Both the position numbers and the translations under genes were made by a program. A stretch of DNA of 64,000 nt from a virus (Duplodnaviria > Heunggongvirae > Uroviricota > Caudoviricetes). Below the pieces are notes generated by a model. That model saw only the letters and a list, made by a program, of their open reading frames with translations. It was not told where the DNA came from and did no database searches. Below, piece after piece: positions 4,943 through 47,611 of this stretch (positions are counted from its first letter, which is position 1; each line of letters begins with the position of its first letter). The stretch lies in IMG/VR virus record IMGVR_UViG_2654587728_000014, positions 1 to 64,000 of that record; one strand, 5' to 3'.

Positions 4943-5515
4943 TTACATTTCAGGTTGCGTTATGACAGTCCCAACAGGGTGATAGCGGTAGATCGTTGAC
5001 AGTCCAATATCATAGATAATTGCCAGCCGCTTTCTGTCATACCCTTTCTGGAGCAATCTTGCGATCTGCTCATGCTGCTCCTTCGTCAGTTTCGGGCGAC
5101 GTCCTCCAACTCTTCCTTGTGCTCGCGCAGCAGCCAGTCCAGCCAGCGTGCGCTCAACTATCAGTTCACGCTCCATTTCTGCCAGTGCACCCATCATATG
5201 AAAAAAGAACCTTCCCATCGGAGTGCTGGTATCGATTGAATCCGTCAGACTGCGAAAATTGACACCTTTTGCGCGTAGCTCTTCTGTGAGAGCAATGAGG
5301 TGTTTCATTCTTCTACCCAACCGATCCAGCTTCCAGACCACCAATGTATCCCCTCTTTTAAGGCACTTTAAAGCGCGTTTCAGGCCTGGTCGTTCCGACT
5401 TGGTTCCGCTCATTTTGTCCTCAAAAATCTGTTCACATCCTGCGCACATTAATGCATTGCGTTGCAAATCTGTGTTTTGGTCATTTGTTGACACACGTAT
5501 GTAGCCAATCAGCAT
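4943..5515 (-). CDS. gin: Gin/Hin/Pin-family serine DNA invertase (invertase 1)
   Basis: 190 aa MLIGYIRVSTNDQNTDLQRNAL...; catalytic Ser motif and C-terminal HTH; AAGGGAG RBS; ORF track 4943..5644 has an upstream non-native extension. Confidence 0.93.
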   Translation of the reverse strand: MLIGYIRVSTNDQNTDLQRNALMCAGCEQIFEDKMSGTKSERPGLKRALKCLKRGDTLVVWKLDRLGRRMKHLIALTEELRAKGVNFRSLTDSIDTSTPMGRFFFHMMGALAEMERELIVERTLAGLAAARAQGRVGGRRPKLTKEQHEQIARLLQKGYDRKRLAIIYDIGLSTIYRYHPVGTVITQPEM

Positions 5516-5569
5516 TAAAAATACTCCCTTTTGAGTGGTTAAAGTACTGAGATAATGTGGGGAGGATTT

Positions 5570-5597
5570 GAGAGATAAACGTTGGTTTGGGAGAAGG
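5570..5597. other. gix-like crossover site A (GAGATAAACGTTGGTTTGGGAGAAGG)
   Basis: matches gix/hix/cix consensus core AAACC-NN-GGTTT; inverted relative to site B at 7984-8011. Confidence 0.6.
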
Positions 5598-6048
5598 TTC
5601 GGCATTACCCGTTGGTGTGCCTGTTCCGTGGCCTTCAGCCACACCGCCTACTGGCTGGCTGAAATGCAACGGTGCGGCTTTTTCTGCTGAAGAATACCCG
5701 GAACTGGCAAAGGTTTATCCGACAAATAAATTGCCGGATTTACGCGGTGAATTTATTCGTGGCTGGGATGACGGACGTGGTGTGGATGCCGGGCGACAAT
5801 TATTATCTTCACAGGGGGATGCAATAAGAAATATTGAGGGATTCGCAGATGGCGGGATCGGTATGTCTTTTGATGCAATCAGAGGGGCTTTTTATGATGC
5901 AGGAACACGATCTGCGAGAATGCCGAATAACACAACTGATATAGGCAAAACCGATGACCTTGGATTCGACGCCTCTCGTGTCGTGCCAACAGCTAATGAA
6001 AACCGTCCACGTAACATCGCCTTTAATTATATTGTGAGGGCTGCATAA
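5587..6048 (+). CDS. tail-fibre variable C-terminal cassette (Sv type), no constant N-terminal part attached in this isomer
   Basis: starts at crossover site with GEGSALPVGVPVPWPSATPPTGWLKCNG, ends ...AFNYIVRAA; homologous to C-termini of S (43887..45341) and H (45962..47611). Confidence 0.75.
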   Translation: MGEGSALPVGVPVPWPSATPPTGWLKCNGAAFSAEEYPELAKVYPTNKLPDLRGEFIRGWDDGRGVDAGRQLLSSQGDAIRNIEGFADGGIGMSFDAIRGAFYDAGTRSARMPNNTTDIGKTDDLGFDASRVVPTANENRPRNIAFNYIVRAA

Positions 6049-6641
6049 TGAAACCTGTTTTTGATGAAAATGGGCTGGCTACAGTGCCGGGTGATATGCG
6101 TTGTTATTATTATGATGCAGTAACGTCTGAATATACGGGCTGGTCTGATGAATATATTAATACTGGCGTAAGTATGCCCGTTTGTTCCACTGGTATTGAC
6201 CCGGGCGAATACATTCCGGGAAGAGTGGCAGTATTTACGGGTAAGGGATGGAGCCATGAAGAAGACCATCGCAATGAGACCGTTTACTCAACTGAAAATG
6301 GCGCAGCTGTTACAGTGGATTATATCGGTGCCATCAAAGACGGTTATGTCACGCTTTCACCGTTAACGCCATACGATAAATGGGATGGTGAGAAATGGGT
6401 GACGGATACCGAGGCACAGCATAGCGCCGCAGTAGAAGCTGCAGAAGCACAGCGCCAGTCGCTGATTGATGCTGCAATGGCTTCCATCAGTCTGATTCAA
6501 CTGAAATTACAGGCCGGGCGGAAGCTGACGCAGCCAGAAAACACCCGACTTAACGCTGTGCTGGATTATATTGACGCGGTGACGGCAACAGATACCAGCA
6601 CAGCGCCGGACGTCATCTGGCCTGAACTGCCGGAGGCGTAG
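6048..6641 (+). CDS. tail fibre assembly protein (Mu U / P2 G family)
   Basis: 197 aa directly after Sv cassette; same family as 45348..45962. Confidence 0.85.
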   Translation: MKPVFDENGLATVPGDMRCYYYDAVTSEYTGWSDEYINTGVSMPVCSTGIDPGEYIPGRVAVFTGKGWSHEEDHRNETVYSTENGAAVTVDYIGAIKDGYVTLSPLTPYDKWDGEKWVTDTEAQHSAAVEAAEAQRQSLIDAAMASISLIQLKLQAGRKLTQPENTRLNAVLDYIDAVTATDTSTAPDVIWPELPEA

Positions 6642-7056
6642 GCCATTCAATATCTGGCGCACCGGAAGTATCGACCAGTTCCAGTGCGTCCAGATAATCC
6701 AGCCACAAATTATATTGCGCCAGTTCCTCACCTTTCAGGCGACCAATCGCCGCTTTACCAGGCCATTGCTTACTGTATATGTATTCGTTGACCTGATTAA
6801 TCAATTGCTGCTTTTCCAGTTCGGCTGCAGCAATTTGTTCCTCATGAGTTGGCGGTGGAATTTCCCCCCAGGTGGGAAGGCCATCATCACCCGCGATGCG
6901 TACTTTCCCTTGCAACGTTCTGTCTTCAATAAATTCCAGGTAAGTGTCATATGTCACTTCGACAACATCAGCAAGTTCCCATCCGGCCTGTTCATATTTC
7001 GCCACATCATTTTTAGCGAAAAAACTATTTTTTGAGGCGCTATAAACCATTTCCAT
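6613..7056 (-). CDS. tail fibre assembly protein (U' type, opposite arm of cassette)
   Basis: 147 aa; conserved ...WPTPPAVQAR end typical of U/G chaperones. Confidence 0.8.
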   Translation of the reverse strand: MEMVYSASKNSFFAKNDVAKYEQAGWELADVVEVTYDTYLEFIEDRTLQGKVRIAGDDGLPTWGEIPPPTHEEQIAAAELEKQQLINQVNEYIYSKQWPGKAAIGRLKGEELAQYNLWLDYLDALELVDTSGAPDIEWPTPPAVQAR

Positions 7057-7057
7057 A

Positions 7058-7531
7058 TTAATACCCTACTGCAATATAAAAAACTGATTCACCAGCGTCC
7101 TGAGAACCTACCCCCGGAACGCCAGACCAGGTTTTGTTAATGAATGCAAAACTGGTATTACTCAGATCAGATGCTCTGTACATCGGGCTGAACATCCAGT
7201 AGTTGGCTCCATATGTTTGTCCGAAAACAATGCCATAGCACTGATTTGTAAATGGCGTAGAAAATAATTTTCCACCAGTACCAGCGATAGTCCCGAATCG
7301 CATCTGGAACCCATTCGGGAAATTAATTCCGCCTGCCGGTGAAGACCAGTAAGACATATCAGGTATTTGCCCAGCACTATTTCCCACGTTTTTTGTTGCA
7401 ACGGTTCCTAACCCAAGATTAGCTCTTGCGTCAGATTTATTTGTTAACTCATAAAGATTATTTGCCTTTTGAAGTGCTCCTATTATGCGTAAATCATCAC
7501 CAGCGGCAACGGTTCCGACTGTCGTGCCCAC
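7058..7531 (-). CDS. tail-fibre-associated protein (extra ORF in cassette)
   Basis: 157 aa, Gly/Asn/Ser-rich with NLGLG motif like fibre distal tips; sits between Sv' and U'. Confidence 0.5.
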   Translation of the reverse strand: MGTTVGTVAAGDDLRIIGALQKANNLYELTNKSDARANLGLGTVATKNVGNSAGQIPDMSYWSSPAGGINFPNGFQMRFGTIAGTGGKLFSTPFTNQCYGIVFGQTYGANYWMFSPMYRASDLSNTSFAFINKTWSGVPGVGSQDAGESVFYIAVGY

Positions 7532-7565
7532 ATCCCTTTTCGCCGCTTCTCCTAAACCAACGTTT

Positions 7566-8072
7566 CTATGCCGCCCTTACGATGTAATTAAACGCAATGT
7601 TACGGGGACGAATGGTCACATAATTAACCCCATCGCCTCGCGAAGGACCTGCAAATGAAAAACGGGAGAATCCAGGTTGGTTGTCAAGGATTTGGTCATA
7701 GTTATTGATTGAATGACCAGACCCAATGTCAAAATTACCTGCGTAATGAGAAAAACTTGTACCATCCTGCCGTGAAAGCAGATCGCGCCCTGTATCCACT
7801 TTTCGCCCGTCGTCCCATCCACGGATAAACTCACCGCGCAAATCGGGAAGACGGAGGGTCGGGTAGACTCTGGCCAGAACAGGATATTGTTCTTTTGTAA
7901 AGGCGCGCCCGTCGCACTTTAACCAGCCTGCTGGCGGTGTGGCAGTGGGCCACGGAACAGGTACACCAACGGGCAGCGCCGAGCCTTCCCCCAAACCAAC
8001 GTTTTCGTTTTTATCCCTACCTATACCAACTCTGTATTTTTCACGAAACAAAGAGGATGTTTTTTTATGCAA
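7566..8072 (-). CDS. tail-fibre variable C-terminal cassette (Sv' type), promoterless in this isomer
   Basis: LGEGSALPVGVPVPWPTATPPAGWLKCDGRAFTKEQYPVLARVYPTLRLPDLRGEFIRGWDDGRKVDTGR nearly identical to the H segment at 46275-46465. Confidence 0.8.
   Translation of the reverse strand: MHKKTSSLFREKYRVGIGRDKNENVGLGEGSALPVGVPVPWPTATPPAGWLKCDGRAFTKEQYPVLARVYPTLRLPDLRGEFIRGWDDGRKVDTGRDLLSRQDGTSFSHYAGNFDIGSGHSINNYDQILDNQPGFSRFSFAGPSRGDGVNYVTIRPRNIAFNYIVRAA
7984..8011. other. gix-like crossover site B (CCTTCCCCCAAACCAACGTTTTCGTT)
   Basis: about 21/26 identical to reverse complement of site A; lies just upstream of invertase 2. Confidence 0.6.
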
Positions 8073-8666
8073 ATTGGCTATATTCGTGTGTCAACAAATG
8101 ACCAGAACACGGATTTACAACGCAATGCACTGAACTGCGCAGGATGTGAACTGATTTTTGAAGATAAAATCAGCGGAACGAAATCAGCCAGACCGGGATT
8201 GAAAAAACTGCTCAGAACGCTATCAGAAGGAGATACGCTGGTTGTCTGGAAGCTGGACAGACTGGGCAGAAGTATGAAACACCTGATCACGCTTATTGAG
8301 GAATTGCGGGAAAAAGGTGTTAATTTCCGTAGTCTGACGGACAGCATTGACACATCAACACCCATGGGGCGTTTCTTTTTTCACGTCATGGGGGCTTTAG
8401 CCGAAATGGAACGTGAATTAATTGTAGAGCGTACACTGGCCGGGCTGGCAGCAGCACGCGCACAAGGACGCATTGGCGGACGTCGCCCGAAGTTGACAAA
8501 AGAACAACACGAGCAAATAGCGAGGCTGATTAAAAACGGTCATGACAGGAAACAACTGGCGATCATTTACGACATCGGCATATCGACGATTTATCGTTAT
8601 CACCCTGTAGGCGATATACAGGCTGAAGAAACAACCAGGCAGACTCAGGAAAATAAAAACCGCTAA
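8067..8666 (+). CDS. Gin/Hin/Pin-family serine DNA invertase (invertase 2)
   Basis: 199 aa MQIGYIRVSTNDQNTDLQRNAL...; paralog of invertase 1 in inverted orientation. Confidence 0.93.
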   Translation: MQIGYIRVSTNDQNTDLQRNALNCAGCELIFEDKISGTKSARPGLKKLLRTLSEGDTLVVWKLDRLGRSMKHLITLIEELREKGVNFRSLTDSIDTSTPMGRFFFHVMGALAEMERELIVERTLAGLAAARAQGRIGGRRPKLTKEQHEQIARLIKNGHDRKQLAIIYDIGISTIYRYHPVGDIQAEETTRQTQENKNR

Positions 8667-8686
8667 TCTGACCATTAGCGGTTTTG
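8659..8686 (+). terminator. rho-independent terminator of invertase 2
   Basis: hairpin ACCGCTAAT-CTGACC-ATTAGCGGT followed by TTTTG. Confidence 0.6.
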
Positions 8687-8692
8687 CGTTAA

Positions 8693-9187
8693 TCAAAACA
8701 GCCCTTTAACGGAGCTGGCCGCGCTGTTAAGGGATGATGTGACCTTATCTTTGAAGCCGGACAGCATATCACTGAACGATGAGGATTGCAGGCGCTCCCG
8801 CAAATCCTCATCACAGCGTTCAAGAGTCAGTGAAAATTCTATCTTTTTCGCCTTACCGTAGCGATCAAACTCGGAACGGGTCGTATTCGTTTCAGTCAGT
8901 ACATACATGCCGTAAATCTGCCCGACACCATCAATCAGAGGCCAGGGGCGTCCTGTATATGCCTGCGTGGTCAGCAACGAAAGCGACACTTCGCCACCTG
9001 TAATTTCAGGATAAAGCACGCCGGAAAGCACGATGCGATCATCACCTGCGCCGATATACTGCCAGCTTGCTGAACGGTTAACGCGTTCATTTTTCACATG
9101 CCGCCAGCTTTTGTTTTGCTGTAACTGCTGATGCGGCAATGTGCGCAGCTCAAAAACAAACATGCCGTAGATCATCATCATGGCCAT
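8693..9187 (-). CDS. U: P2-like tail protein gpU
   Basis: 164 aa MAMMMIYGMFVFELRTLP...; gpU family; D is not downstream as it would be in P2. Confidence 0.88.
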   Translation of the reverse strand: MAMMMIYGMFVFELRTLPHQQLQQNKSWRHVKNERVNRSASWQYIGAGDDRIVLSGVLYPEITGGEVSLSLLTTQAYTGRPWPLIDGVGQIYGMYVLTETNTTRSEFDRYGKAKKIEFSLTLERCDEDLRERLQSSSFSDMLSGFKDKVTSSLNSAASSVKGLF

Positions 9188-9193
9188 GACTCC

Positions 9194-10681
9194 TCAATCT
9201 TTATCGTAAAAACTGCCACGCCCGGCACGGGCGCGCCGTTCCATTTCTGCCCTGACCATTTCGCCAATCAGTTTCGCCAGTTCGCGGGGATTCTGTGTAA
9301 CAACGTTATGCAGATGAACATGAATTTCACCGCCAAATCCGGAGGCAACAGGCTCCCGGTTACGGGAAGTTGCAGGAACTGATGCCACTGGCGATCGTAT
9401 AGCCTCCGCCACCGGGCGGGAGCTGGCCGCAACAACAGGGACCAGCGCCGGAGGCAGCGGAGCCGGAACCACGGGTGTGATAGTAATTGCGGGGGCAGGC
9501 TTACTGACCTGCGCAATCTTCCGCTCCTGCCACTCCCCACGAACAGCAAGTGCGCGGGGCAGGTTCTTAAAGACAATATCGCCGGGGCCAATGCGTTTTT
9601 TCGTCTCATCAACCAGCTTACCTGTGTTATCAGCAATTTTGCTGAGTCTGCGTAGCGTACCGGTATTGTTGTCTGTGAGCGGTTTGTTGTCTCTGGGTTT
9701 ATCGCCTTTTTTGTCGTCGACCTTATCTGACGGGGCCGGGCCGGGAGTCCATGGTTTCTGAACCATTTTCTTGAGAACCGGATCCCATTCCCACATTACA
9801 GGAGCCTTTGAAGCGTTCTCTATTTTCTTTCTCGCCCGTTCCGCTTCATCCGGAAGCACTCCGAGCTTTTCAAGTATCCACGCCAGTGAATCCATCAATG
9901 CTTTTGTTGGCGTCAGGACAAGCTCTATCGCTCCACCGAGTACCCTGCCGAATACCTCGCCAGCACTGGTACATTTATCCAGCGTTTCCTTGCTGGACTC
10001 CATCGGTGACAGCAGCGATTTAAACCAGTTAAAGACCTGAATAATCCCATCGCGCACGACATCAAAAACTGGACCGAACCGTTCAAAGGTTTCGCGCAAC
10101 GGAGCCAGCCGTTCCATAATCCCACTGAACACCCCTGCATAAAACGCCTTGATGGGTTCCCAGTATTTCCAGATGAGAACCGCCGCAGCCACAAACGCAG
10201 CAGCAATCAATCCGACCGGGCTGAACAGCGCCCCGATAGCGCCCCCCAGTAACGAAACGGAACCCGTCACCATTCCCCATAGTGCTGGCAGGAGCCTGAC
10301 AGCATTCATTGATCCGGTCAGGAGGGAAAAGCCAAGACGCAGTTTTGCCAGCGGGCCAGCAAGCACACCAATAGCCAACGACAACGAGCCGACCGTTGCA
10401 GTCATCGCCAGCAATGCCCCACCTGCAATCAGTAGCTGGCGCGTCAGTGCCGGATGGGCCTGCGCCAGCGCCGTCACCTTTGATACCACCCGCGTGAGCC
10501 ACTGCGTGACAGAACGCAGCGGACCGTCAATCAGATCTGCAATGCGGATGCGCAACCCTTCCCATGCACTGCCGAGTGATTTCAGATCGCCGTCAAGGTT
10601 GTTGGCCATAACCTTTGCTGTGCGTTCAGCCTCACCGCGCGCGCCTTCAAGTTCTTTTCTCAGTTTGGGTAAGGAGCCGTC
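9194..10681 (-). pseudogene. T: P2-like tape measure protein gpT, C-terminal part (upstream boundary is the Mu-like end at about 10681)
   Basis: ORF 9194..10609 (471 aa) with Gly/Ala-rich hydrophobic tape-measure segment; frame open only to an in-frame stop at 10658-10660. Confidence 0.78.
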
Positions 10682-10845
<164 letters not shown>

Positions 10846-11656: not shown

Positions 11657-11657
11657 A

Positions 11658-11864: not shown

Positions 11865-12084
11865 TCTGAATACCTCCCCATTCGATATGAATATTACGGG
11901 CAGCAATGACAGGGTCGTTATTCCACCATGCACCTGACATGTATTTTTCAACCTGTTCGCGTCCGGCAATAACACCAATTGTGATCCCCGGCCTGACGTT
12001 CTTAAAAAAGGCGCGGGCAAAAAGGTATCTGGCAGATATTCGGCAGGCTTTTAATTTCCGGCTTTTACCTGATAGCGTAATCAT
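11854..12084 (-). CDS. hypothetical protein
   Basis: 76 aa; GGAGG RBS; start overlaps upstream stop (ATGA coupling). Confidence 0.5.
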   Translation of the reverse strand: MITLSGKSRKLKACRISARYLFARAFFKNVRPGITIGVIAGREQVEKYMSGAWWNNDPVIAARNIHIEWGGIQNDY

Positions 12085-12764
12085 CTGGCCTCCAGTTTCT
12101 GTTGTTCCTGCCCACTGACCGGGCGGTGCAGTCTGACGTTCTGCCCTTCACGAAACCCCGCATAGCGCGAGGCGTCGCCATTGCGGCTTCTTCCCGGTTT
12201 ACGCGCCCTGGTGGTTTGCGTCTGCGGGTATTTATGTTCCAGCCACTGCTGCATCAGTTCACGCTCATCATCGGTCAGGGCAAAGGACTGTATTTCACTG
12301 ATAACGGCCAGCACCCAGCCTTCGGCAAACTGGTCTCCACGGCTGGTGCGGGTGGCGGTTTTTATTCTTTTGTTCTGTGCACTGATATACTGCTGACGCG
12401 CCTTTTTCAGCTGACGGGCCAGCACTTCCCAGGTGTATGCAGCCAGTGCCGCACGTTCCCGGTTGCCGTAGAACCCCACAGACGGATGCGTGCCGGGGTG
12501 AATGATGGAGTTAACACCAAATACCTCGCGGATGATGTTCATCAGGCCCAGCATGTAGCGCGGTGGACGGAGACTGCCTGTCGGCCAGTAGTGACTGATG
12601 GTTTCATCAATATCACTCATAGCAATGTCGGAATGTGTGATGCCGTGAACATCCATCAGTTTACGGGCTCGGCACAGTGCCAGAGCGGCCTCGTGCGGGT
12701 TGCCGGATGCGGCCAGCGCCAGCAACTTTTTCAGTTTCTCAATGTGTTTATTCTGGTCTGTCAT
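12081..12764 (-). CDS. hypothetical phage protein (DUF2786-like N-terminus)
   Basis: about 227 aa from MTDQNKHIEKLKKLLALAASGNPHEAALAL...; domain call from memory. Confidence 0.5.
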   Translation of the reverse strand: MTDQNKHIEKLKKLLALAASGNPHEAALALCRARKLMDVHGITHSDIAMSDIDETISHYWPTGSLRPPRYMLGLMNIIREVFGVNSIIHPGTHPSVGFYGNRERAALAAYTWEVLARQLKKARQQYISAQNKRIKTATRTSRGDQFAEGWVLAVISEIQSFALTDDERELMQQWLEHKYPQTQTTRARKPGRSRNGDASRYAGFREGQNVRLHRPVSGQEQQKLEAR

Positions 12765-12976
12765 TGTTCTGTATCTCCGGTATTTTTCTGCCGTTTCCAT
12801 GCCCGGACAGCGTCGGACAGCTCTTTCAGGCTGTATGCTGCTTTAAGCTTTTCCCATAACCACTGTGTTGTTATGTGCATCAGCAGGGCAGCCAGGGCTG
12901 CCCCCGCACTGAGGCATGTCGCCAGGCCAGTAAGAATCAGTATCCATGCGGTGATTTCCCTGAGTATGTCAGCCAT
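12761..12976 (-). CDS. small membrane protein
   Basis: 71 aa with one hydrophobic helix (ITAWILILTGLATCLSAGAALAALLM). Confidence 0.45.
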   Translation of the reverse strand: MADILREITAWILILTGLATCLSAGAALAALLMHITTQWLWEKLKAAYSLKELSDAVRAWKRQKNTGDTEQ

Positions 12977-12990
12977 TGAATGCCTCCCGG

Positions 12991-13287
12991 TTACTCGTTC
13001 GTGTAAATCACGCCCAGTCGTGCAGCCAGACGTTCCAGTTTTTTCTGTTTGTGGAAGTCAATCAGCCGGTCCATCCCCTGAAGGCGCAATTGCTCTGTCA
13101 TGATTTCCACGTCTGCCAGCTCTGCCGCGAGGTCGCTTTCGCTGCCCTGTCCGTTCAGATTGCGGGCAGCACTGGCCGCCAGTTCAGCGGCCTCTTCTGT
13201 CAGTTTCAGGGCCTGTGCGTCCGGCCCGAAACGCTGCAGGGCCAGACGGTAGAGGGCGGTGCGGGTGAGTATGGTGTTCCGTGTCAT
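12991..13287 (-). CDS. MazG-like nucleoside triphosphate pyrophosphohydrolase (putative)
   Basis: 98 aa with EEAAELAASA...AAELADV acidic helical motifs typical of small MazG/all-alpha NTP-PPases. Confidence 0.5.
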   Translation of the reverse strand: MTRNTILTRTALYRLALQRFGPDAQALKLTEEAAELAASAARNLNGQGSESDLAAELADVEIMTEQLRLQGMDRLIDFHKQKKLERLAARLGVIYTNE

Positions 13288-13296
13288 GCCGCGCCC

Positions 13297-13569
13297 TCAG
13301 TGCTTCCGGCTGACGGTGATGTGCAGGCCGCCTTCTGCAGTGGTTTCCATCCGGTACGGCACCTCATGCGCTGCCGTGTGGGTTAGTGTGTTCACCAGTA
13401 CCTGCAGGGCAGCCGCCTTTCCGTTGGTCGCCACAATGGCTTGAGCGGTCATGCTGATTAGCGCCGTCAGGACGTGCTTCACATCGGTGAGGTCGCGGCA
13501 TTCACACTCGTTGACATAGTGTTCAACAAGGGTTCGGGTGCGCTGTCGTGCTTCCTGTGGGGTAATCAT
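13297..13569 (-). CDS. hypothetical protein
   Basis: 90 aa ORF in early operon, coupled to neighbours. Confidence 0.45.
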   Translation of the reverse strand: MITPQEARQRTRTLVEHYVNECECRDLTDVKHVLTALISMTAQAIVATNGKAAALQVLVNTLTHTAAHEVPYRMETTAEGGLHITVSRKH

Positions 13570-13760
13570 TGCGAGTCCTCCCTGTCAGGGCGGGAGAATT
13601 CCATGACGGGCACGTCTGCCGAAAAATGCTGGCTGCAGTACGGGCAGACCAGGGTGACGCGTACCGCAGGGATGTGGTATTTACCGGACATCACGGCGAT
13701 GGCGCTGTGAAAACGCAGGGCTGTTATATCCCTCTCGCACTGAATACATTTAAATATCAT
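13566..13760 (-). CDS. zinc-ribbon protein (Com-like CxxC...CxxC)
   Basis: 64 aa MIFKCIQCERDI...VCPYCSQHF resembling Mu Com zinc finger. Confidence 0.5.
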   Translation of the reverse strand: MIFKCIQCERDITALRFHSAIAVMSGKYHIPAVRVTLVCPYCSQHFSADVPVMEFSRPDREDSQ

Positions 13761-13857
13761 GATTTAATTCTCCTCTGTTTCCGGCGTGCAGAAGCCCGCG
13801 GCGCTGACGTCGGAATAAAAAAGAAAATGTTTTTATTAAATAATTAACGTGGTGTGT

Positions 13858-14388
13858 TTACTGCACATCCTGCTCAAAAGGAATTATTGAAAAATCCTCA
13901 ATGTCGCTTTTAATGGAAATACCGGGAATATTTTTCACGGCCTCTTTTTCATTCAGGATAGCGTCTTTATTTATTTCCTCTTTTACACGAATAAAGCGCT
14001 CAAGCCCCAGACGTCTCAGCAGTTCAATGACATTATCCGCCCCGCGAATGCTGACTGACGGCGGACGGTTTCGCCACTGCACCTCGCCGGTGGTGAGGTT
14101 AGCGAACTTCACCTTCCCGTTGCCGGTCAGTTCATCACGGTGCGCCTCACACCATGTCTGGATACCGGACTGCAGTTCGGCCATGCGTTTTTTCAGGCTC
14201 TCGGTGAGCGGGGCATAACGTGCAGTGATGTCGCCAATGGTGTCATTCATTTCTGTTTCAGCCCTGACCAGTTCACGTTGCGCGTCACCAAGCAGTCTGA
14301 TTCCCTCAATGACCTCTTCGCGTGTCCCCGGCACCCAGAGTGCTGCTGCGGCTTTGATACGTTTTGCCCCTTTTGTACTTTTTGCCAT
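13858..14388 (-). CDS. gam: Gam-like host-nuclease inhibitor
   Basis: 176 aa; Mu Gam family by sequence and position downstream of B. Confidence 0.82.
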   Translation of the reverse strand: MAKSTKGAKRIKAAAALWVPGTREEVIEGIRLLGDAQRELVRAETEMNDTIGDITARYAPLTESLKKRMAELQSGIQTWCEAHRDELTGNGKVKFANLTTGEVQWRNRPPSVSIRGADNVIELLRRLGLERFIRVKEEINKDAILNEKEAVKNIPGISIKSDIEDFSIIPFEQDVQ

Positions 14389-14415
14389 ATTTTATGACTC
14401 CTCCTGTTGTGCTGA

Positions 14416-14685
14416 TTACCACAAAGATTCCGGCCACACGACGCGACAGCCGTGCAGTTCGAAAACGCCCTGACGGAAATGTCCCCTGTGGTCATGACCG
14501 GTATACAGATAACAGGCCTTTCCCTGCTCAAGCATGCGCATGCAATGCGCACTCCGGGAAACGCGGATGACAGGTTTGTTACCCCTGATGGTGATGCTTT
14601 GTACATCCGTGTTCGTCGCCTTAAGCGCCATAATGGCTGACTGCACTTTGCTGATTTGCTGGTTGATACCTGTGGTGGATTTCAT
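14416..14685 (-). CDS. hypothetical protein (occupies Mu kil position)
   Basis: 89 aa ORF between B and gam. Confidence 0.4.
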   Translation of the reverse strand: MKSTTGINQQISKVQSAIMALKATNTDVQSITIRGNKPVIRVSRSAHCMRMLEQGKACYLYTGHDHRGHFRQGVFELHGCRVVWPESLW

Positions 14686-14687
14686 TA

Positions 14688-15854
14688 TTAAACCCCTTTG
14701 ACAACGTCAGCGTTGACCTGTGGAACCCCGATTTCAGCGGCCAGATTCATGGCGGCTATTACCAGGTTACTGACGGCCAGCGGATACAGCAGGCTGACCA
14801 TATTTTTACGATGACTTCCCGGATTGCTCAGGCGGGCACGTATGGCATCCACTGCGCTGGCGTCCATAATGTCCGTCAGTTGTTTACCGGCCCGTTGCAG
14901 TTTGAACGTCAGAAACTCTTCAAGGTTATTGTCCAGAGGCAGAAGTTCGACCACCTCACAGCGCTGAACGACTTCACGGACTTCCATATTGCGTTCAGAC
15001 AGTTTTGTCGCCAGTTCCGGCTGGCCAATCAGCACGATGGACAGCAGTTTTTTGAAACCGGACTCCAGCTCAAAAAAGCGTTTGAGGTGTTTCAGTGTCG
15101 GAATGGGCAGACTGTGGGCCTCCTCAATCACCAGAACGTGGCTGAACCCCGCCTGGCTGCTGTCTTTCAGGACGCGATGCAACTGGCGAAAGCGGGCGTC
15201 CTGACTGCGTCTGATGCTTTCCAGTGGTGCGATGGTACTGATAATGGCTTCGGCAATCGCTGCTGCCTTCAGGGTTTTCCCTTTCACATCGTTGTCTTCC
15301 ATAGCGATGATGTATGGCTCGATAACAATTACCGGCGCATTCTCGCGGTTGATACGTTCAGTCAGGTCGCGGCGCAGCGTGGATTTACCCGCACCGGACT
15401 CACCGATGACGGCCATAAACCCACCATGACGGGCTGTCTGGTACAACGCCTCACGCACGTAGCGAATATCCGGGGTGGTGAACACATCATCAGAACCCTG
15501 CATGGCTTCGTCGGCGAACGGGTCACGGAAAAGACCAAACGCTTTTTTGGTTGCTGGAAATAACACCTGTTTTTTGAGTAACATATTCTCTTCCTCACTG
15601 AGGCTCGTTTTATCTGTGGTACCCGCTGTACGGGGCGTGGCCGCGCCCTGTACAGCATCAAAACTCTTCGTTGTATCAATCCCCTGACTTTCCAGCCAGG
15701 ACGCAAGACGCCGGCGCACTTCTCCGGGGCTGGTGCGGGGCCACGCGTTATGATTCACAATCTGGGCCAGCGTGGCCTCAGAAACATCGACAGCTCTCGC
15801 CACCACCGCCTGTGGAATACGGGCCTCTTTCAGTTGCTGCTTCAGTACCAGCAT
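14688..15854 (-). CDS. Mu B-like transposition ATPase
   Basis: Walker A AVIGESGAGKST, N-terminal HTH; probable start MLVLKQ after GGAGGG RBS; ORF track 14688..15893. Confidence 0.8.
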   Translation of the reverse strand: MLVLKQQLKEARIPQAVVARAVDVSEATLAQIVNHNAWPRTSPGEVRRRLASWLESQGIDTTKSFDAVQGAATPRTAGTTDKTSLSEEENMLLKKQVLFPATKKAFGLFRDPFADEAMQGSDDVFTTPDIRYVREALYQTARHGGFMAVIGESGAGKSTLRRDLTERINRENAPVIVIEPYIIAMEDNDVKGKTLKAAAIAEAIISTIAPLESIRRSQDARFRQLHRVLKDSSQAGFSHVLVIEEAHSLPIPTLKHLKRFFELESGFKKLLSIVLIGQPELATKLSERNMEVREVVQRCEVVELLPLDNNLEEFLTFKLQRAGKQLTDIMDASAVDAIRARLSNPGSHRKNMVSLLYPLAVSNLVIAAMNLAAEIGVPQVNADVVKGV

Positions 15855-15864
15855 GTTTCCCTCC

Positions 15865-17634
15865 TCAGTTGCCGTTAACAATGCTGATAACACTGCTGCG
15901 GGCCGGTGTGGTCAGCGTGGCCATGACTTCATCCAGTGCGGCTTCCGGTACGCCGTCCGGGTACTGTGCCGTTAACTGGCGGTAATGTTCCGGCGTCCAG
16001 GTAAGGCCGTCGGCGCTGAACTTATCGCGCAGGGCTTTCGCGGCCTCCACATGAGTCATGGGACGTTGTTCAGTGCGCGGCCCGCGTACGTCAGAGGCCT
16101 GACCACGCTTCGGCATATAGGCCGGAAGTGTGGTGTCGTCGATATGTTTATACGGGTCAAGCCGCCCGCCGAACGGCAGCGCCTTCGCCTTGCGTGCGGC
16201 GGCTGCATCTGCGGCGTTGTCTGTACCGGTAACCAGCGCTTCGGTTTCTTTTGCCGCCATCTGTGCCGGGGTTTCCGGCAGGGCTTTGTAACTTTCGCCA
16301 AATACCGCCGCGCCTTCAGCAAAGCCAAACTCGTTCTTTCTGACCTCTTCGACCAGGAAGAACGTCTCGTGGCCGTCCTCACCGGTCAGAACCACCTGTG
16401 CCACATCGCTGCGCCATGGGTTACGGGTAATCATCAGTTTTTCACCAACCAGTACGCCCGGTACCGTTGATACGTCAAATTCAGTGCCCCGGAACGAGAC
16501 ACGAAGTTTTGGCGTGACTTTGCGGAGTTCTGGTGCCGCCACAGCCAGTTCACGACATACCTCAACGGAAGGCGCTTTTTTCAGCTGCTCAGCAGTAATC
16601 TTCAGCCAGATATCCGTGCGGGTTTTACCGTGGCGGCTGTGAACAGCCGTGGCGTTAAAGTGGCTGCGCCATTTCGCGGCCAGCGCGTTGAGTTCTTCCA
16701 GACTGTGAACCGGCCGGAACTTCAGACCCGGCTCCAGCTTGCGTTCGATAATGTCACGCGCCTTTTCCACCTGTCCGGTGGCGCGGGCGTTATGCGGCTT
16801 GTGCGCTATCAGGTCGATGCCCAGTGAGCGGCACATGTTTTTCGTCATACCCGCGGTGTTTGCCGAGCCGGGGTCGAGATAGAGTATTTTCGGCACGCCG
16901 TGCAGCACGTCTGCGCCGCCACGCTCCTGCATGGCGTTGATAAGCACAGAACACAGGTTCTCACCTGATTCCGCGCCCGTCACATACTCAACGTAAATCC
17001 AGCCGCTGGCATGGTCGGTAATCTCGTAACTCCACACGCGGTCACTGGCGATACGGGCAAGGTTAGCGGGCTTGTTCTTGTAGAACTTCGCGCTGTCCAT
17101 CACCTGCAGCCCTTTATGTCCATTGCTCAGGTAGTAAAGCGTGCAGAGTGAGGCGTCAATCTGCCAGACATGATTGGGATGCAGACTGGCCACTTCGGTA
17201 TGTGGTGCAGGGGCATCCAGTTGTTCCGGGTGCAGGCCATAGTTACGCAGAGCACGGCTGATGGCATCTTCAGACAACGGGAAAAACTCACTGGTGGTTT
17301 CATCTGTTCTGCCTGCGGTGATAAAGCCGTTAGCCCGCAGGGTTTCCACTGCATCTGCGATGGAATAGAGACGCTTACCGTTCTTGCGGGTGGCCTCACG
17401 CAGTGTGGCAGATATCAGCGCGGCTTCGTCGCGGGTCAGGGCGCTGCGCCCGGCATCGGCGCGTTTTTTGCGTTTATCAGTCACAGATACCTCCTTCAGC
17501 CTGCGCAGCAGAGTGGCGCGGGACATGCCAAGTTCAGCACAGGCAGCGTCGTATATTGCACCGCGTTTACCATGCCCCGCGTCACGTGCCGCGCGGGCTG
17601 TTTCAACCAGTTTTTCAGTCAGTGCCGGGGTCAT
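15865..17634 (-). CDS. Mu-like DDE transposase (MuA family)
   Basis: 589 aa; large transposase immediately upstream of B-like ATPase; MuA-like N-terminal DNA-binding and core regions. Confidence 0.88.
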   Translation of the reverse strand: MTPALTEKLVETARAARDAGHGKRGAIYDAACAELGMSRATLLRRLKEVSVTDKRKKRADAGRSALTRDEAALISATLREATRKNGKRLYSIADAVETLRANGFITAGRTDETTSEFFPLSEDAISRALRNYGLHPEQLDAPAPHTEVASLHPNHVWQIDASLCTLYYLSNGHKGLQVMDSAKFYKNKPANLARIASDRVWSYEITDHASGWIYVEYVTGAESGENLCSVLINAMQERGGADVLHGVPKILYLDPGSANTAGMTKNMCRSLGIDLIAHKPHNARATGQVEKARDIIERKLEPGLKFRPVHSLEELNALAAKWRSHFNATAVHSRHGKTRTDIWLKITAEQLKKAPSVEVCRELAVAAPELRKVTPKLRVSFRGTEFDVSTVPGVLVGEKLMITRNPWRSDVAQVVLTGEDGHETFFLVEEVRKNEFGFAEGAAVFGESYKALPETPAQMAAKETEALVTGTDNAADAAAARKAKALPFGGRLDPYKHIDDTTLPAYMPKRGQASDVRGPRTEQRPMTHVEAAKALRDKFSADGLTWTPEHYRQLTAQYPDGVPEAALDEVMATLTTPARSSVISIVNGN

Positions 17635-17649
17635 AGCTTGTCTTCCCTG

Positions 17650-18887: not shown

Positions 18888-18897
18888 TGATTACTCC

Positions 18898-19212: not shown

Positions 19213-19258
19213 ACCTCTTTTGCGATATGTGATAACCTTTTACAAAGACTCAAAATAT

Positions 19259-19447: not shown

Positions 19448-19499
19448 CGTTGTCTCCTTTGTTGATGCAATGATGTTTGCCTTATATGTGTTAGATTAT

Positions 19500-19983: not shown

Positions 19984-20014
19984 CCGGAAAGCATTGTGCT
20001 TTCCGGTTTTGTTT
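19984..20014 (+). terminator. rho-independent terminator after repressor gene
   Basis: hairpin CCGGAAAGCA-TTGT-GCTTTCCGG followed by TTTTGTTT. Confidence 0.6.
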
Positions 20015-32325: not shown

Positions 32326-32326
32326 C

Positions 32327-41823: not shown

Positions 41824-41877
41824 GCTTTTTAAACGCCTTTAATATCAGCGTTCCCGCACGGGGGCAATACTGCCCCC

Positions 41878-43890: not shown

Positions 43891-45341
43891 TTATGGGAAA
43901 CCTGAATGAAACAGAAAAGTGGGAAGAAAATATCTATCAACTGGAGACATCAGATCCGGTTCTGGGTGGTGCAGACGGGATATCAAATCGAGCCCCCCGG
44001 CAACTGGCAAACAGGACGAAATGGCTGAAGAAAAAAACGGAGGAAGCCGCACAGTCACTGGCTGAACACGTACGTTCCCGTAACCACCCGGACGCGACAC
44101 TGACAGCTAAGGGGTTCACCCAACTGAGCAGTGCCACCAACAGCACCTCTGAAACGCTGGCCGCCACACCAAAGGCCGTCAAGGCTGCATATGACCTGGC
44201 TGCCGGCAAGGCCCCCGTCAGCCATACTCACCCGTGGAGTCAGATAACGGGAGTGCCTGCTGCCTCGCTGACGGCAAAAGGCACCGTACAACTGAGCAGC
44301 GCCACGGACAGTCAATCAGAAACTGAGGCTGCCACGCCGAAGGCGGTCAAGGCTGCATACGACCTTGCAGCCGGCAAGGCGCCCGTCAGCCACACTCACC
44401 CGTGGAGTCAGATAACGGGAGTGCCTGCTGCCTCGCTGACGGCAAAAGGCACCGTACAACTGAGCAGCGCCACGGACAGTCAATCAGAAACTGAGGCTGC
44501 CACGCCGAAGGCGGTCAAGGCTGCATACGACCTTGCAGCCGGCAAGGCGCCCGTCAGCCACACTCACCCGTGGAGTCAGATAACGGGAGTGCCTGCTGCC
44601 TCGCTGACGGCAAAAGGCACCGTACAATTGAGCAGTGCCATCAACAGCACGTCTGAAATACTGGCCGCCACACCGAAAGCGGTCAAGGCTGCATACGATC
44701 TGGCAAACGGAAAACAACCGGCAGATGCCACGCTCACTGCTCTGGCAGGACTTGCCACTGCAGCAGATCGGTTGCCTTATTTTACCGGAGCAGACCGCGC
44801 AGAGCTGGCAACCCTTACAGCTATTGGTCGCGCTATTATCGCTAAGGGCAGTATAAAAGATGTCCTCAATTACCTTGGTTTGGGGGAAGGCTCTGCATTG
44901 CCTGTTGGTGTACCGGTTCCATGGCCCACCGCCACACCGCCAGCAGGCTGGTTACAGTGCAACGGAGCTACGTTCACCAAAGAACAATATCCTGTTCTGG
45001 CCAGAGTCTACCCGACCCTCCGTCTTCCCGATTTGCGCGGTGAGTTTATCCGTGGATGGGACGGTGGTCGCAAGGTTGATACCGGGCGTGCGCTACTTTC
45101 ATTTCAGGAAGGGACTATCGTATCCGGTTTTGATGATAATGATACCGGAGATATCAGTTCGCTCGGCTCTACACAATACGGATTTGGTGACGCTTTAACC
45201 TCTAATCAACTGGGGGTCTTAAATGGCAAAAAGTGGATATTTGATGCATCCTCTAAAGGTGCACAAAGATATGACTGGTGGGCTTATGTATCAGCTCGCC
45301 CCCGCAATATCGCATTTAACTATATCGTGAGGGCGGCGTGA
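43887..45341 (+). CDS. tail fibre protein S of Mu-like element (constant part up to site C, then variable part)
   Basis: 484 aa; tandem shaft repeats; C-terminus LGLGEGSALPVGVPVPWP...NYIVRAA shared with H and the cassette ORFs. Confidence 0.9.
   Translation: MIMGNLNETEKWEENIYQLETSDPVLGGADGISNRAPRQLANRTKWLKKKTEEAAQSLAEHVRSRNHPDATLTAKGFTQLSSATNSTSETLAATPKAVKAAYDLAAGKAPVSHTHPWSQITGVPAASLTAKGTVQLSSATDSQSETEAATPKAVKAAYDLAAGKAPVSHTHPWSQITGVPAASLTAKGTVQLSSATDSQSETEAATPKAVKAAYDLAAGKAPVSHTHPWSQITGVPAASLTAKGTVQLSSAINSTSEILAATPKAVKAAYDLANGKQPADATLTALAGLATAADRLPYFTGADRAELATLTAIGRAIIAKGSIKDVLNYLGLGEGSALPVGVPVPWPTATPPAGWLQCNGATFTKEQYPVLARVYPTLRLPDLRGEFIRGWDGGRKVDTGRALLSFQEGTIVSGFDDNDTGDISSLGSTQYGFGDALTSNQLGVLNGKKWIFDASSKGAQRYDWWAYVSARPRNIAFNYIVRAA
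44099..44700 (+). repeat. tandem 168-bp coding repeats (about 3.5 copies; two perfect copies at 44267-44434 and 44435-44602)
   Basis: exact 168-nt periodicity encoding LTAKGTVQLSSATDSQSETEAATPKAVKAAYDLAAGKAPVSHTHPWSQITGVPAAS. Confidence 0.85.
44865..44891. other. gix-like crossover site C (CTCAATTACCTTGGTTTGGGGGAAGG)
   Basis: consensus core; same orientation as site A; at the constant/variable junction of S. Confidence 0.6.
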
Positions 45342-45347
45342 TACCGT

Positions 45348-45962
45348 TCAGCCGGCAAGCGCCAGTGGCGCTTCCGGCCAGCTGATTTCAGGTGCCTTGC
45401 TGATATCCAGTGCGTTCAGCTCGTCGATATAATCCAGCACGGCGTTCAGTTTTGCCGTTTCTTCTGGTTTCAGACTGCGACCAGCACGCAGTTTGAGGTT
45501 GATAAGATCGACGGACGCCATCGCCTGTTTCACCCGTTGCTGGCGTTGCTGTCTGGCAACCTCCAGTTCTGCGGCTCGCTGCCGTTCAGTATCGGTTACC
45601 CACGCCTCACCGTTCCAGGTATCCCATGGCGTGGCTGGCTGTTTTGTGGTGGTGTCCGCCGGGTAATCACCCGGTTGGGTAATCAGAACGGGGTTACCGT
45701 TCTCCGTGCTGTATACCGTCTCGCCGCGGTGATCAGGCACATGCTCCCACCCGTTCAGCGTGGCAGTCCGGCAAACCACGTAACCCGAAATTGCTTCCGG
45801 CGGTGCATCGGCGCACGAATGTGCCGGAGTACCCACCCCAAGGGCGAGATACTCCACAGAGGATGAGGTGTATTCCCGGGTTTCCTCGTCATAGTGATAT
45901 ACAGTGATATCGCCCGCTACAGTGGCGATACCGTTTTCATCCAGAACTGCAGTGTTACTCAT
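45348..45962 (-). CDS. G: tail fibre assembly protein (P2 G / Mu U family)
   Basis: 204 aa directly downstream of H; stop is 6 bp from the stop of S on the other strand. Confidence 0.85.
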   Translation of the reverse strand: MSNTAVLDENGIATVAGDITVYHYDEETREYTSSSVEYLALGVGTPAHSCADAPPEAISGYVVCRTATLNGWEHVPDHRGETVYSTENGNPVLITQPGDYPADTTTKQPATPWDTWNGEAWVTDTERQRAAELEVARQQRQQRVKQAMASVDLINLKLRAGRSLKPEETAKLNAVLDYIDELNALDISKAPEISWPEAPLALAG

Positions 45963-47611
45963 TAAACTGCCCTCACAATGTAATTAAGTGCAATGCTACG
46001 GGGTCTGACAGTGATACCCTTCGCATACCCGCTTCTGATAGAGGTCAGAATAGTAGCCTGCATACCATTGTCTGACATTGCCACGACAGGATCGCTGAAT
46101 GTTGTCCCGTCCGGCATTTTAAAGCTGCCCTCACGAAGGTCTGTAATGGAATCTTCATTGTTGAATCCCATGCCGACTATCCCCGAGGTTCCCGTAGTGT
46201 CCTGGTTATAATAATCCAGCATTGCTGTTCTTAACAGCGTTGCCCCTTGTGCGGACAGCAACTTACGTCCTGTATCAACTTTGCGCCCGTCGTCCCATCC
46301 ACGGATAAACTCACCGCGTAAATCGGGAAGACGGAGGGTCGGGTAGACTCTGGCCAGAACAGGATATTGTTCTTTTGTAAAGGCGCGCCCGTCGCACTTT
46401 AACCAGCCTGCTGGCGGTGTGGCGGTGGGCCACGGAACAGGCACACCAACGGGTAGCGCCGAGCCTTCTCCTAAACCAAGGTAATCAAGAACTCCCTGAG
46501 TGCTGGTTTTACCAAGAATGGCACGTCCAACACTTGTCAACGCGGTTAACGCGGCACGATCTGCCCCTGTAAAATATGGGAGTTTATCTGCTGATGTAGC
46601 AAGCTCCGCCAGCGCCGTCAGGGTGGCATCCTTCGGTTGCTTACCCGCAAGCGCGTTAGTCATGGTGGTCGCAAAATTCGGGTCATTGCCCAGCGCTGCA
46701 GCCAGTTCGTTCAGCGTGTTCAGTGCATCAGGTGACGAATCTACAAGTGCGGCAATCGCAGCCATAACGAAAGCCGTGCTTGCGATCTGGGCACTATTAG
46801 TCCCCTGTGGCGCTGTTGGTGTTGTTGGCGTTCCGGTCAGTGCCGGGCTGTTTAATGGTGCTTTCTTGTTCGTTTCATCCATTACCGCCTTAACAGCTTT
46901 TGGTGTCGCTGCCAGCGTTTCAGACGTGCTGTTCGTGGCGCTACTGAGCTGAACAATCCCTTTTTGTGTAGTGGTGGCGTTCTGGGCGGTATATTTCCCG
47001 TTAGCCAGGTCATATGCAGCCTTAACCGCTTTCGGTGTTGCGGCCAGTGTTTCTGATTCACTGTTAATTGCACTGCTTAACTGAGTAAAACCTTTTACGG
47101 TCAGCGAGGCGTCCGGGTGACGTCGTGACTGTTCGTGCTCTGATATTTTATCATCCACATATTTGCGGGTTGCCAGAACCACAGACGGGTCGATTTTCAG
47201 CGTGATGGCTTCGGTGTTCGTGACAACCAGAATCATGCGGATAGTCTGGGTGCGTCCACTGCCTTCCTGCAACTGCGGTTTGTACGTTTCCGGGCAGTTT
47301 GCCACCGCAATGAGTGCACCTTCATCATCATAAAGACCAATCTCACGGATCCAGAATCCTCCCTCGTTTTCAGGGATGATTTGCTCCGCAATAATCTGGC
47401 TCTGATTGTTAGGGTCAACACTCAGAAGATTCAGCGGTGCAATGCGTTTCTGGTTAATCAGTTTTGTTTGTGCAGGGTCTGGTGTTGGTAACACACCATT
47501 TGCATCACCAACGGCCATTTGCGTCAGATTCAGCTTACTGCCGAGCATCGTCGCGTTAGCCAGTCGTGCTGCGCCCTGATTAGTCAGAATGGCGTAGTAT
47601 TTCACTGTCAT
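45962..47611 (-). CDS. H: P2-like tail fibre protein
   Basis: 549 aa; N-terminus MTVKYYAILTNQGAARLANA...IAVANCPETYKPQLQEGSGR matches P2 H; C-terminal part after site D matches Mu-type Sv. Confidence 0.9.
   Translation of the reverse strand: MTVKYYAILTNQGAARLANATMLGSKLNLTQMAVGDANGVLPTPDPAQTKLINQKRIAPLNLLSVDPNNQSQIIAEQIIPENEGGFWIREIGLYDDEGALIAVANCPETYKPQLQEGSGRTQTIRMILVVTNTEAITLKIDPSVVLATRKYVDDKISEHEQSRRHPDASLTVKGFTQLSSAINSESETLAATPKAVKAAYDLANGKYTAQNATTTQKGIVQLSSATNSTSETLAATPKAVKAVMDETNKKAPLNSPALTGTPTTPTAPQGTNSAQIASTAFVMAAIAALVDSSPDALNTLNELAAALGNDPNFATTMTNALAGKQPKDATLTALAELATSADKLPYFTGADRAALTALTSVGRAILGKTSTQGVLDYLGLGEGSALPVGVPVPWPTATPPAGWLKCDGRAFTKEQYPVLARVYPTLRLPDLRGEFIRGWDDGRKVDTGRKLLSAQGATLLRTAMLDYYNQDTTGTSGIVGMGFNNEDSITDLREGSFKMPDGTTFSDPVVAMSDNGMQATILTSIRSGYAKGITVRPRSIALNYIVRAV
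46464..46491. other. gix-like crossover site D (CCTTCTCCTAAACCAAGGTAATCAAGAA)
   Basis: very good match to hix/gix consensus; same orientation as site B. Confidence 0.6.

Follow-up and report, generated by a model that had tools for sequence, protein, structure and literature searches.

The stretch of DNA analyzed here (the window, i.e., the whole 64,000 nucleotides of the tailed-phage record IMGVR_UViG_2654587728_000014) corresponds to bases 432-64431 of contig JHRJ01000008.1 in the Escherichia coli draft assembly GCA_001267345.1, as identified by exact-protein matches and an alignment at 100%. The whole window is a P2-like prophage with a BcepMu-type transposable prophage nested in its tape-measure gene T, and we examined how the invertible tail-fibre regions of these two phages, each with its own Gin-family invertase, have become connected. 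The comparison set included five P2-like relatives, namely GF31 (L001), O157:H7 BB24-1 (L005), EA2 (L007), Ceylon31 (L008), and strain 1434 (L012), a reference for the transposable phage (L006), a survey set of 5,426 complete E. coli genomes, and, as a second data set, an independent Logan assembly of read run SRR21136863. The first relative considered for the transposable phage (L002) has a degenerate and palindromic cassette that made it unsuitable as a reference, and L006 was used instead.

A P2-like (Peduovirinae-type) gene set including ogr was recognized from Pfam domains and from the annotation of collinear relatives. In the window, D lies at the left edge on the minus strand, FI, FII, E, E', and T follow on the plus strand, and further right are found H, I, J, W, V, S, R, the lysis genes, X, L, M, N, and O on the minus strand and P and Q on the plus strand. 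The 5' half of T (T-N, 3535-4864, plus strand) carries a PhageMin_Tail domain in Pfam and is 97.6% collinear with the intact T of GF31, in which positions 12001-16864 are collinear with window 1-4864. The other half (T-C, 9194-10683) lies with U (8693-9187) in a minus-strand block (8693-10683) identified through the Pfam domain Phage_P2_GpU and through collinearity with GF31, whose positions 16859-19469 correspond to the window from 10683 down to 8067, reversed. The two halves are thus on opposite strands, T-N ending at 4864 and T-C beginning at 10683, and the 6-base-pair (bp) target duplication GTGACG is found at both breaks (4859-4864 and, reverse-complemented, 10678-10683). Since both halves are collinear with GF31, T was broken at a single point, and an earlier reading of this DNA from its letters alone (the sequence-only reading) was right to treat T-N and T-C as halves of one tape-measure gene, the split matching both prophage ends and GTGACG.

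The right end of the transposable prophage (TGATGCGCCGCGCGATAAATG..., 4865-4942) starts directly inside the first break. Its left end (TGATTAGACTTGAGATAAATG...) starts at 10684 and leads into the body, which extends up to the constant part of the tail-fibre gene S (10684-44862) and was delineated by Pfam content and by identity to the Escherichia phage PhiKM. Early genes are encoded on the minus strand and include Mor, GemA, Gam (Phage_Mu_Gam), a MuB-like ATPase (AAA_22), an rve transposase, and a repressor region, while the plus strand carries the late genes for lysis, head, and a P2-type tail up to the constant part of S. The prophage ends (TGATGCGCC... and TGATTAGAC...) are TG-initiated and have GATAAATG repeats in common. 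Homology to prophage copies at many chromosomal sites, at ≥99% identity, begins at window 4861-4865 in about 1,200 E. coli genomes, and the insertion sites of these relatives are varied (ompF, gcd, fdrA, beside aroA, and others). The element therefore combines a DDE transposase, a MuB-like ATPase, Gam/Mor/GemA, TG ends with repeats, a short duplication, and varied insertion, as expected of a transposable prophage, so that the earlier designation "Mu-like" was right about its lifestyle. In taxonomic terms, however, the element is of BcepMu type: the body is 99.6% identical to PhiKM, which is classified in the genus Bcepmuvirus, and it does not belong to the genus Muvirus, as its early genes lie on the strand opposite to the late genes and its tail module is of P2 type. 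"Mu-like" is used below only to distinguish this phage and its relatives from the P2-like ones.

Next to the right end lies invertase 1 (4943-5515, minus strand, 190 amino acids), the gin homologue of the transposable prophage, with Pfam domains Resolvase and HTH_7 and a match to the Mu Gin structures 4m6f and 3uj3 at E = 2e-93 over residues 1-181; its flank is identical to the gin flank of L006 at 70 of 70 positions. Invertase 2 (8067-8666, plus strand, 199 amino acids) is the P2-like prophage's own enzyme, at 97.2% to the recombinase of GF31 and EA2. Both are full length, with Resolvase and HTH_7 domains and the catalytic motif GYIRVSTNDQ; in NCBIfam, no equivalog scored above its cut-off for either invertase, and no specific Gin/Pin model was among the hits. 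The two proteins share 86% amino acid identity and their genes about 73–80% at the DNA level, which refines a previous figure of 80% similarity.

Five crossover sites were identified, and are written here as 26 bp, i.e., a 2-bp core with 12 bp on either side. Sites A (5570-5595, GAGAGATAAACG TT GGTTTGGGAGAA, core 5582-5583) and C (44863-44888, TCCTCAATTACC TT GGTTTGGGGGAA, core 44875-44876) are in plus orientation, and sites A' (7547-7572, GGCATAGAAACG TT GGTTTAGGAGAA), B (7986-8011, AAAACGAAAACG TT GGTTTGGGGGAA, core 7998-7999, beside invertase 2), and D (46466-46491, TTCTTGATTACC TT GGTTTAGGAGAA, core 46478-46479) in minus orientation. All are located at constant/variable junctions of tail-fibre genes or beside invertase genes, with a "constant" outer flank and a variable-segment inner flank, and all are in frame in the tail-fibre reading frame (...Y/N-L/V-G-L-G-E-G-S-A-L-P-V-G-V-P-V-P-W-P...). 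Their common 15-mer TTGGTTTRGGRGAAG occurs five times against 0.00 expected (100 shuffles), the core dinucleotide is TT in each of the five, and the inner half-site GGTTTRGGRGAA is conserved, half-site and core reading AAACG-TT-GGTTT at A, A', and B and TTACC-TT-GGTTT at C and D. Core-to-core distances are 2,416 bp for A-B, 1,977 bp for A-A', 1,603 bp for C-D, 40,896 bp for A-D, and 36,876 bp for B-C.

The sequence-only reading had proposed four sites, A and C in one orientation and B and D in the other, all with an AAACC-NN-GGTTT core, together with two intact Gin-family invertase genes flanking the cassette at A and B, small cassettes of 2.4 kilobases (kb, A-B) and 1.6 kb (C-D), and larger exchanges of 37–41 kb. 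The coordinates and orientations of these four sites are real, the two invertase genes are intact and in the expected positions, and the sizes agree with the distances measured; on the other hand, A' had been missed, and the proposed core is exact in none of the sites. Taken by itself, that loose core (AAACCNNGGTTT) gave three hits with one mismatch against 1.93 expected, which is not significant on its own, and was replaced by the conserved inner half-site. Because the core of Mu gix is TC and that of the present sites TT, they are, as judged by sequence, of the cix/pix type and not Mu gix. They also fit the Sandmeier consensus as quoted in Table 3 of PMC4134206. In the same table, the crossover sites of prophage Phi2 of strain EC958, whose intervening segment flips in PacBio reads, have outer halves and cores as in A and C, and the inner halves at A and C occur in GGTTTGGGRGAA forms. 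Specifically, the inner half of site C (GGTTTGGGGGAA) is the form given for the Phi2 3' site, and its outer half and core (TCCTCAATTACC TT) are those of the Phi2 5' site.

The P2-like invertible cassette (5584-7558) is 96.7% collinear with Ceylon31 over 5579-6864 and contains the Pfam domains Collar and Caudo_TAP. It is composed of the variable segment Sv1 (to 6048) and a chaperone gene (6048-6641) on the plus strand, and of a second chaperone gene (6613-7056) and Sv2 (7058-7558) on the minus strand. A third alternative C-terminus without its own chaperone gene, Sv3 (7566-7997, minus strand, in-frame GLGEGSALPVGVPVPWP...IAFNYIVRAA*), has site A' directly after its stop codon. The block formed by A', Sv3, B, invertase 2, U, and T is contiguous in the P2-like strain 1434 (92.4%), in which site A' and its flank are likewise found. 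As Sv3 is at 97.7% to a variable segment of L002 over 217 bp, an import of Sv3 and site B from a transposable phage was considered, and was rejected because of this contiguity. In the window, Sv1, Sv2, and Sv3 are all enclosed by the two invertase genes and have no constant part to which they could be fused.

The second cassette, between C and D, is flanked by two fibre genes that face each other across it, S of the transposable phage and H of the P2-like phage, as had been recognized earlier. S (43893-45341, plus strand, 482 amino acids) is an intact open reading frame (ORF) collinear with relatives, and is now fused to segment Sv_x (44877-45341). The remainder of the cassette (45348-46477, minus strand) comprises a chaperone gene (45348-45962) and segment Sv_y (45962-46477). 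On the far side, a chimeric fibre gene (45962-47611, minus strand, intact ORF of 549 amino acids) joins the constant part of the P2-like H (47611-46480, 99.6% identical to P2-like relatives) to the Mu-like Sv_y, and is followed by the Mu-like chaperone gene. The locus thus holds five alternative C-terminal segments (Sv1, Sv2, Sv3, Sv_x, and Sv_y), with an adjacent chaperone gene for three of the five (Sv1, Sv2, and Sv_y); the absence of such a gene next to Sv_x and Sv3 is the same native state as seen in L006. The constant part of S contains three tandem 168-bp (56-codon) repeats (44100-44713, Phage_fiber_2) that are 82–90% identical to each other, and their copy number varies among relatives, the match in MLI114 spanning 167 bp more. 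Beside site C, a patch at 44894-44921 has six mismatches in 28 bp relative to L006, resembles the inner flank of a P2-like variable segment (BB24-1), and may be a short gene-conversion tract.

To which phage each cassette belongs can be read from the closest relatives. In L006, S, a site, the cassette, a site, gin, and the right end are contiguous, and window 44327-46479 is 99.2% identical to this arrangement, without any mismatch over 45002-46479, so that the C-D cassette is the transposable phage's own. In the five P2-like relatives, the native order is FI, FII, E, E', T, and U on the plus strand, followed by the invertase (minus strand), a site, the cassette, a site, and H, I, and J (minus strand), and the cassette itself has opposite orientations in BB24-1 and EA2. 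The contiguous block in strain 1434 and the collinearity with Ceylon31 identify the A-B cassette as the P2-like phage's own. This assignment makes B and C parental sites and A and D recombinant ones. Site B, the P2-like site beside invertase 2, matches strain 1434 at 64 of 70 outer, 12 of 12 core, and 110 of 110 inner positions, and site C, the S-proximal site of the transposable phage, matches L006 at 70 of 70 outer and 12 of 12 core positions.

The two recombinant junctions are reciprocal to each other. Outside site A, all 70 flanking positions and the AAACG half-site (5/5) match the gin-proximal site of L006, while inside it 110 of 110 positions match the H-proximal cassette of Ceylon31, compared to 84 of 110 for the Mu-like inner flank. 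At site D, the outer side belongs to P2-like H (70/70, plus 5/5 for TTACC, to the H-proximal site of EA2), and the inner side matches the gin-proximal cassette of L006 at 110 of 110 positions, compared to 86 of 110 for the P2-like inner flank. The switch from one parent to the other falls within a shared 7-bp interval, TTGGTTT (5582-5588 and 46473-46479), which includes the core dinucleotide, i.e., the point where serine invertases cut and rejoin DNA (PMC4513852). This base-by-base match confines the exchange to TTGGTTT, and indicates reciprocal, conservative recombination by a serine invertase.

When the A-D segment was reversed in silico, the resulting sequence gave one collinear alignment to L006 (99.07%) that covers S, the cassette, and gin and stops precisely at the right end (4865), and was also collinear with EA2, which displays the native P2-like layout, across the restored H junction. 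The restored element measures 36,513 bp and lies between T-N and T-C on one strand. Undoing one large inversion is thus sufficient to recover both canonical layouts and to bring T-N and T-C onto one strand, in agreement with the sequence-only reading, which had considered either A x D or B x C for this inversion. Only A x D can be retained: as a historical event, B x C would reverse the cassettes and place the Mu-like one between the invertases, the opposite of the layout seen. We estimate at about 85% the probability that a single A x D inversion (40,896 bp) by a Gin-family invertase, joining the two prophages, explains the present arrangement.

The same junctions bear on whether the invertases were involved at all. 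The conserved 5' parts of the variable segments, about 200–230 bp long, could in principle have served as substrates for RecA-dependent recombination and produced the 41-kb inversion without any invertase, especially as inverted repeats of 145–244 nucleotides and 76–86% complementarity link both regions, and as the mismatch patch beside site C suggests some homologous conversion among segments. The near-identical repeats of about 190 bp that had been noted next to the sites are real, extending to about 190–230 bp (7774-8002 and 46254-46482 are 93% identical; 7759-8002 and 44872-45115 are 86% complementary). A homologous crossover should however fall within the repeat and produce an inner flank of mosaic origin, whereas here the crossover is located at the extreme edge of homology, in 7 bp containing the cleavage dinucleotide, with unrelated outer flanks (13 matches in 70) and inner flanks that are purely parental (110/110) from the first discriminating base. 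The confinement of the crossover to 7 bp at the core argues against the RecA route for the recorded event, and we consider it very unlikely.

An assembly artefact, i.e., a mis-join across the fibre repeats or a path through a mixed population in which the real genome is un-inverted, was weighed along with the second data set. The source is a draft assembly, invertible fibre regions are known to confuse assemblers (PMC4134206), and the contigs from SRR21136863 themselves break about 80–120 bp inside the repeats, so that only junctions A and B are readable there, each as the outer flank and about 100 bp more, while no contig with D was recovered. Within these limits, the independent assembly reproduces junction A base for base, with 100% identity and no mismatch over window 1-5706, including 118 bp past A, and a second contig extends from site B into the phage body, crossing T-C and the left end. 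Moreover, the hybrid and alternative joins have only 7 bp in common, which is not enough for a mis-join based on k-mers. The sequence on each side is unique and remains 100% parental as far as the core, and the remaining four site junctions all agree with one reciprocal event. An artefact therefore appears extremely improbable.

Neither hybrid junction A nor D was detected in the 5,426 complete E. coli genomes, in which the best full-length matches to 211-bp segments centred on the junctions reached 93.2% (D) and 95.8% (A), and the same set yielded neither the same genome nor the same junction between T and the prophage. Exact-protein look-ups returned matches in the source draft contig and one Logan assembly only, and for the chimeric H protein in the source assembly only. 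The hybrid junctions are thus not a widespread native arrangement.

Several observations nevertheless weigh against our interpretation. First, fibre modules are mosaic among P1-, P2-, and Mu-like phages, so that the assignment of cassettes to phages relies on close relatives and not on intrinsic markers. The outer flanks in the P1-like plasmid pF719-4 (L009, 3999-6279) and in the P2-like strain 1434 (L012 1057-1068) are those found in S- and gin-proximal position in BcepMu-type phages, and these identical flanks suggest that the whole module (constant end, sites, and invertase) moves between phage families. Second, invertases of this type use a recombinational enhancer with two Fis sites, located in the 5' part of the invertase gene near one crossover site, and support for such an enhancer here, as judged from sequence, is limited to homology of the 5' part of the genes with Mu gin (about 80% DNA identity): over the site-to-start spacing and the first 200 bp, both invertase genes and Mu gixR-gin have a mean column identity of 81%, and of the two G-N13-C 15-mers 48 bp apart that can be read by eye in the Mu stretch, invertase 1 keeps one, with the other lacking the terminal C. 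Third, only one isomer is seen, in both available assemblies. Fourth, the sites are 41 kb apart, which is far beyond the distances usually studied for Fis/enhancer invertases, and at this spacing the event may be very rare.

Based on these patterns, the following sequence of events can be proposed. The transposable phage (36.5 kb) would first have inserted into T of a resident P2-like prophage, each phage bringing a Gin-type invertible fibre region made of a constant part, a site, a cassette, a site, and an invertase. An invertase would then have recombined the gin-proximal site of the inner phage with the H-proximal site of the outer phage, 40.9 kb apart and in inverted orientation. We infer a dependence on Fis and an enhancer for this step, and either of the two invertases could have acted. 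One conservative cleavage and rejoining at the TT core would have inverted all DNA between A and D, which would leave the three variable segments of the outer phage silent between the invertase genes and the cassette of the inner phage between S and H. With the inner cassette in this position, the P2-like H would carry the variable tip of the other phage.

For the transposable prophage, the present isomer consists of a 0.7-kb piece (right end and gin) and a 35.8-kb piece, with 5.1 kb of P2-like DNA between them, and its two ends are now in direct instead of inverted orientation. Mu transposition requires ends in inverted orientation, and the same would presumably hold for Bcepmuvirus. The direct orientation of its ends thus suggests that the prophage is probably immobilised in this isomer.

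We next considered what the network of sites could still do. With only inversions between oppositely oriented sites allowed, a breadth-first exploration yields 64 isomers and 20 S/H combinations; in this model the large segment is re-inverted in half of the 64 isomers, and S and H can each acquire any of the five variable segments. From the present state, six inversions are open in principle (A x A', A x B, C x D, A x D, B x C, and A' x C). Since all five sites and both invertase genes remain undamaged, small and large flips alike should still be possible by this chemistry, and we infer that the network may switch in present-day cells. How often the large exchange might recur is another matter, and it could have been a one-off accident, invertase-made but since frozen, with 37–41-kb exchanges effectively never repeated and local cassettes alone flipping, if any do. 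Such freezing would be in line with the same isomer being found at junction A in two data sets, and with the P2-like phage being dead in every isomer for lack of an intact T. Invertasome assembly takes place at a plectonemic branch of supercoiled DNA that has an enhancer close by (PMC4513852), a geometry that should disfavour distant partners and make 37–41-kb pairings rare. Conversely, the TT core and conserved half-sites are kept in 5/5 sites along with both intact invertase genes, the large event happened at least once, and nothing in the sequence blocks its reversal. We regard a frozen accident as a serious possibility, although short of even odds.

A 41-kb inversion that remains reversible in growing cells, and acts as a switch with a biological effect and two linked outputs, is a more tentative idea that we consider rather unlikely. 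If true, one output would be to break or restore the transposable prophage, its ends being direct or inverted and gin and the right end being detached or not, and the other would be to pool five receptor-binding tips of two unrelated phages, either fibre S or H carrying any of them. It would also provide a natural route for invertases to move host-range modules between phage families.

Additional features of both prophages were noted. In the whole P2-like subfamily represented here, the FI-FII-E-E'-T-U block lies on the strand opposite to D and to the invertase-H-I-J (or H-I-J) genes; the canonical order in P2 is H G FI FII E T U D. At the U/invertase junction, only a hairpin resembling a bidirectional terminator was found (8641-8690). 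D, a late control/VgrG-like gene at window 1-1242, is a long ORF (413 codons in the ORF listing, called as 369 amino acids) that is annotated as shorter (801 bp) in GF31 (12001-12801) and BB24-1 (552-1352), and in these two genomes FI lies about 550 bp further away from where the window-like D sequence ends. Elsewhere in the P2-like part, ParM-like partition genes and a replication endonuclease gene are found at 60944-63845, and the transposable prophage carries a DNA adenine methylase gene at 20014-20868, all named after the annotation of relatives.

Should the A x D inversion be correct, a single chromosome retains both reciprocal products of an exchange between two prophages, resolved to the base pair and with the two parental site types next to them. 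The set of sites that can recombine would then be bounded by compatibility of the 2-bp core and not by phage identity, and an invertase would be able to rearrange tens of kilobases of chromosome, with an outcome that can disable a transposable prophage and transplant its receptor-binding tip onto the fibre of another phage. This has a bearing on prophage grounding, on the evolution of phage host range, and on the reading of "inversions" in polylysogenic genomes. Pipelines for inverton detection usually consider only short inverted repeats that lie close together.

The textbook role of Gin-type invertases is to flip a 2–3-kb cassette within one phage, and an exchange of fibre modules between phages by invertases has long been proposed from sequence mosaicism. 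Invertible fibre cassettes, multi-site cassettes, and trans-acting prophage invertases are already established. Our literature search found no described invertase joining sites of two prophages with inversion of the DNA between them, the nearest item being a preprint on ST131 isolates in which tail-fibre sequence is said to have undergone an unexplained "translocation" among P88-like and phiE255-like prophages (bioRxiv 10.1101/2022.05.07.487787). As in Gin/gix of Mu, Cin/cix of P1, and Pin/pix of e14, the present systems combine an invertase of about 190 amino acids, 26-bp sites at the constant/variable fibre junction, and alternative C-termini with cognate assembly chaperones, and as in Mu a site lies about 65 bp upstream of the invertase start codon. 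Unlike the AAACC-TC-GGTTT of Mu, the sites here have a TT core with AAACG or TTACC half-sites, and unlike in any of these three systems, two invertase genes and five sites from two phages are linked, one "invertible segment" being 37 kb long and including most of a prophage.

The most direct counterpart is Phi2 of E. coli ST131 strain EC958 (PMC4134206), a phage of the same type with the same layout (S, site, cassette, site, invertase, right end), in which site outer halves and TT core are identical to those described here (TCCTCAATTACC TT and GAGAGATAAACG TT, then GGTTTRGGRGAA); the cassette in the window is 99.2% identical to ST131-type relatives. The Phi2 sites recombine only with each other and flip 2.1 kb, whereas here the invertase-proximal site was joined to a site of another prophage 41 kb off. 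Matched core base pairs are required for religation in the recombinant configuration (PMC4513852), and the P2-like prophage Phi1 of EC958 has sites with a TC core that are incompatible with the TT of Phi2 (PMC4134206, Table 3), a difference that would keep the two systems apart. Here both phages use TT, and this common core is the enabling feature. Systems with more than two sites and more than two fibre C-termini include Min of p15B and the three-repeat cassette of a P2-like prophage in EPEC E2348/69 (PMC4272514). The A-A'-B arrangement is a three-site cassette like that of EPEC E2348/69, and is also present in strain 1434. In Min and EPEC E2348/69, however, a single element is involved with segments of 1–3 kb, while the set of sites described here spans two nested prophages. 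Finally, invertases acting in trans across prophages are known from PinQ of Qin, which inverts the P segment of e14 (PMC12529663), and from EC958 Phi4, which has a truncated invertase (PMC4134206). In these cases, both recombining sites belong to the same prophage, whereas in the present chromosome each prophage contributed one site, and the chromosome between them was rearranged.

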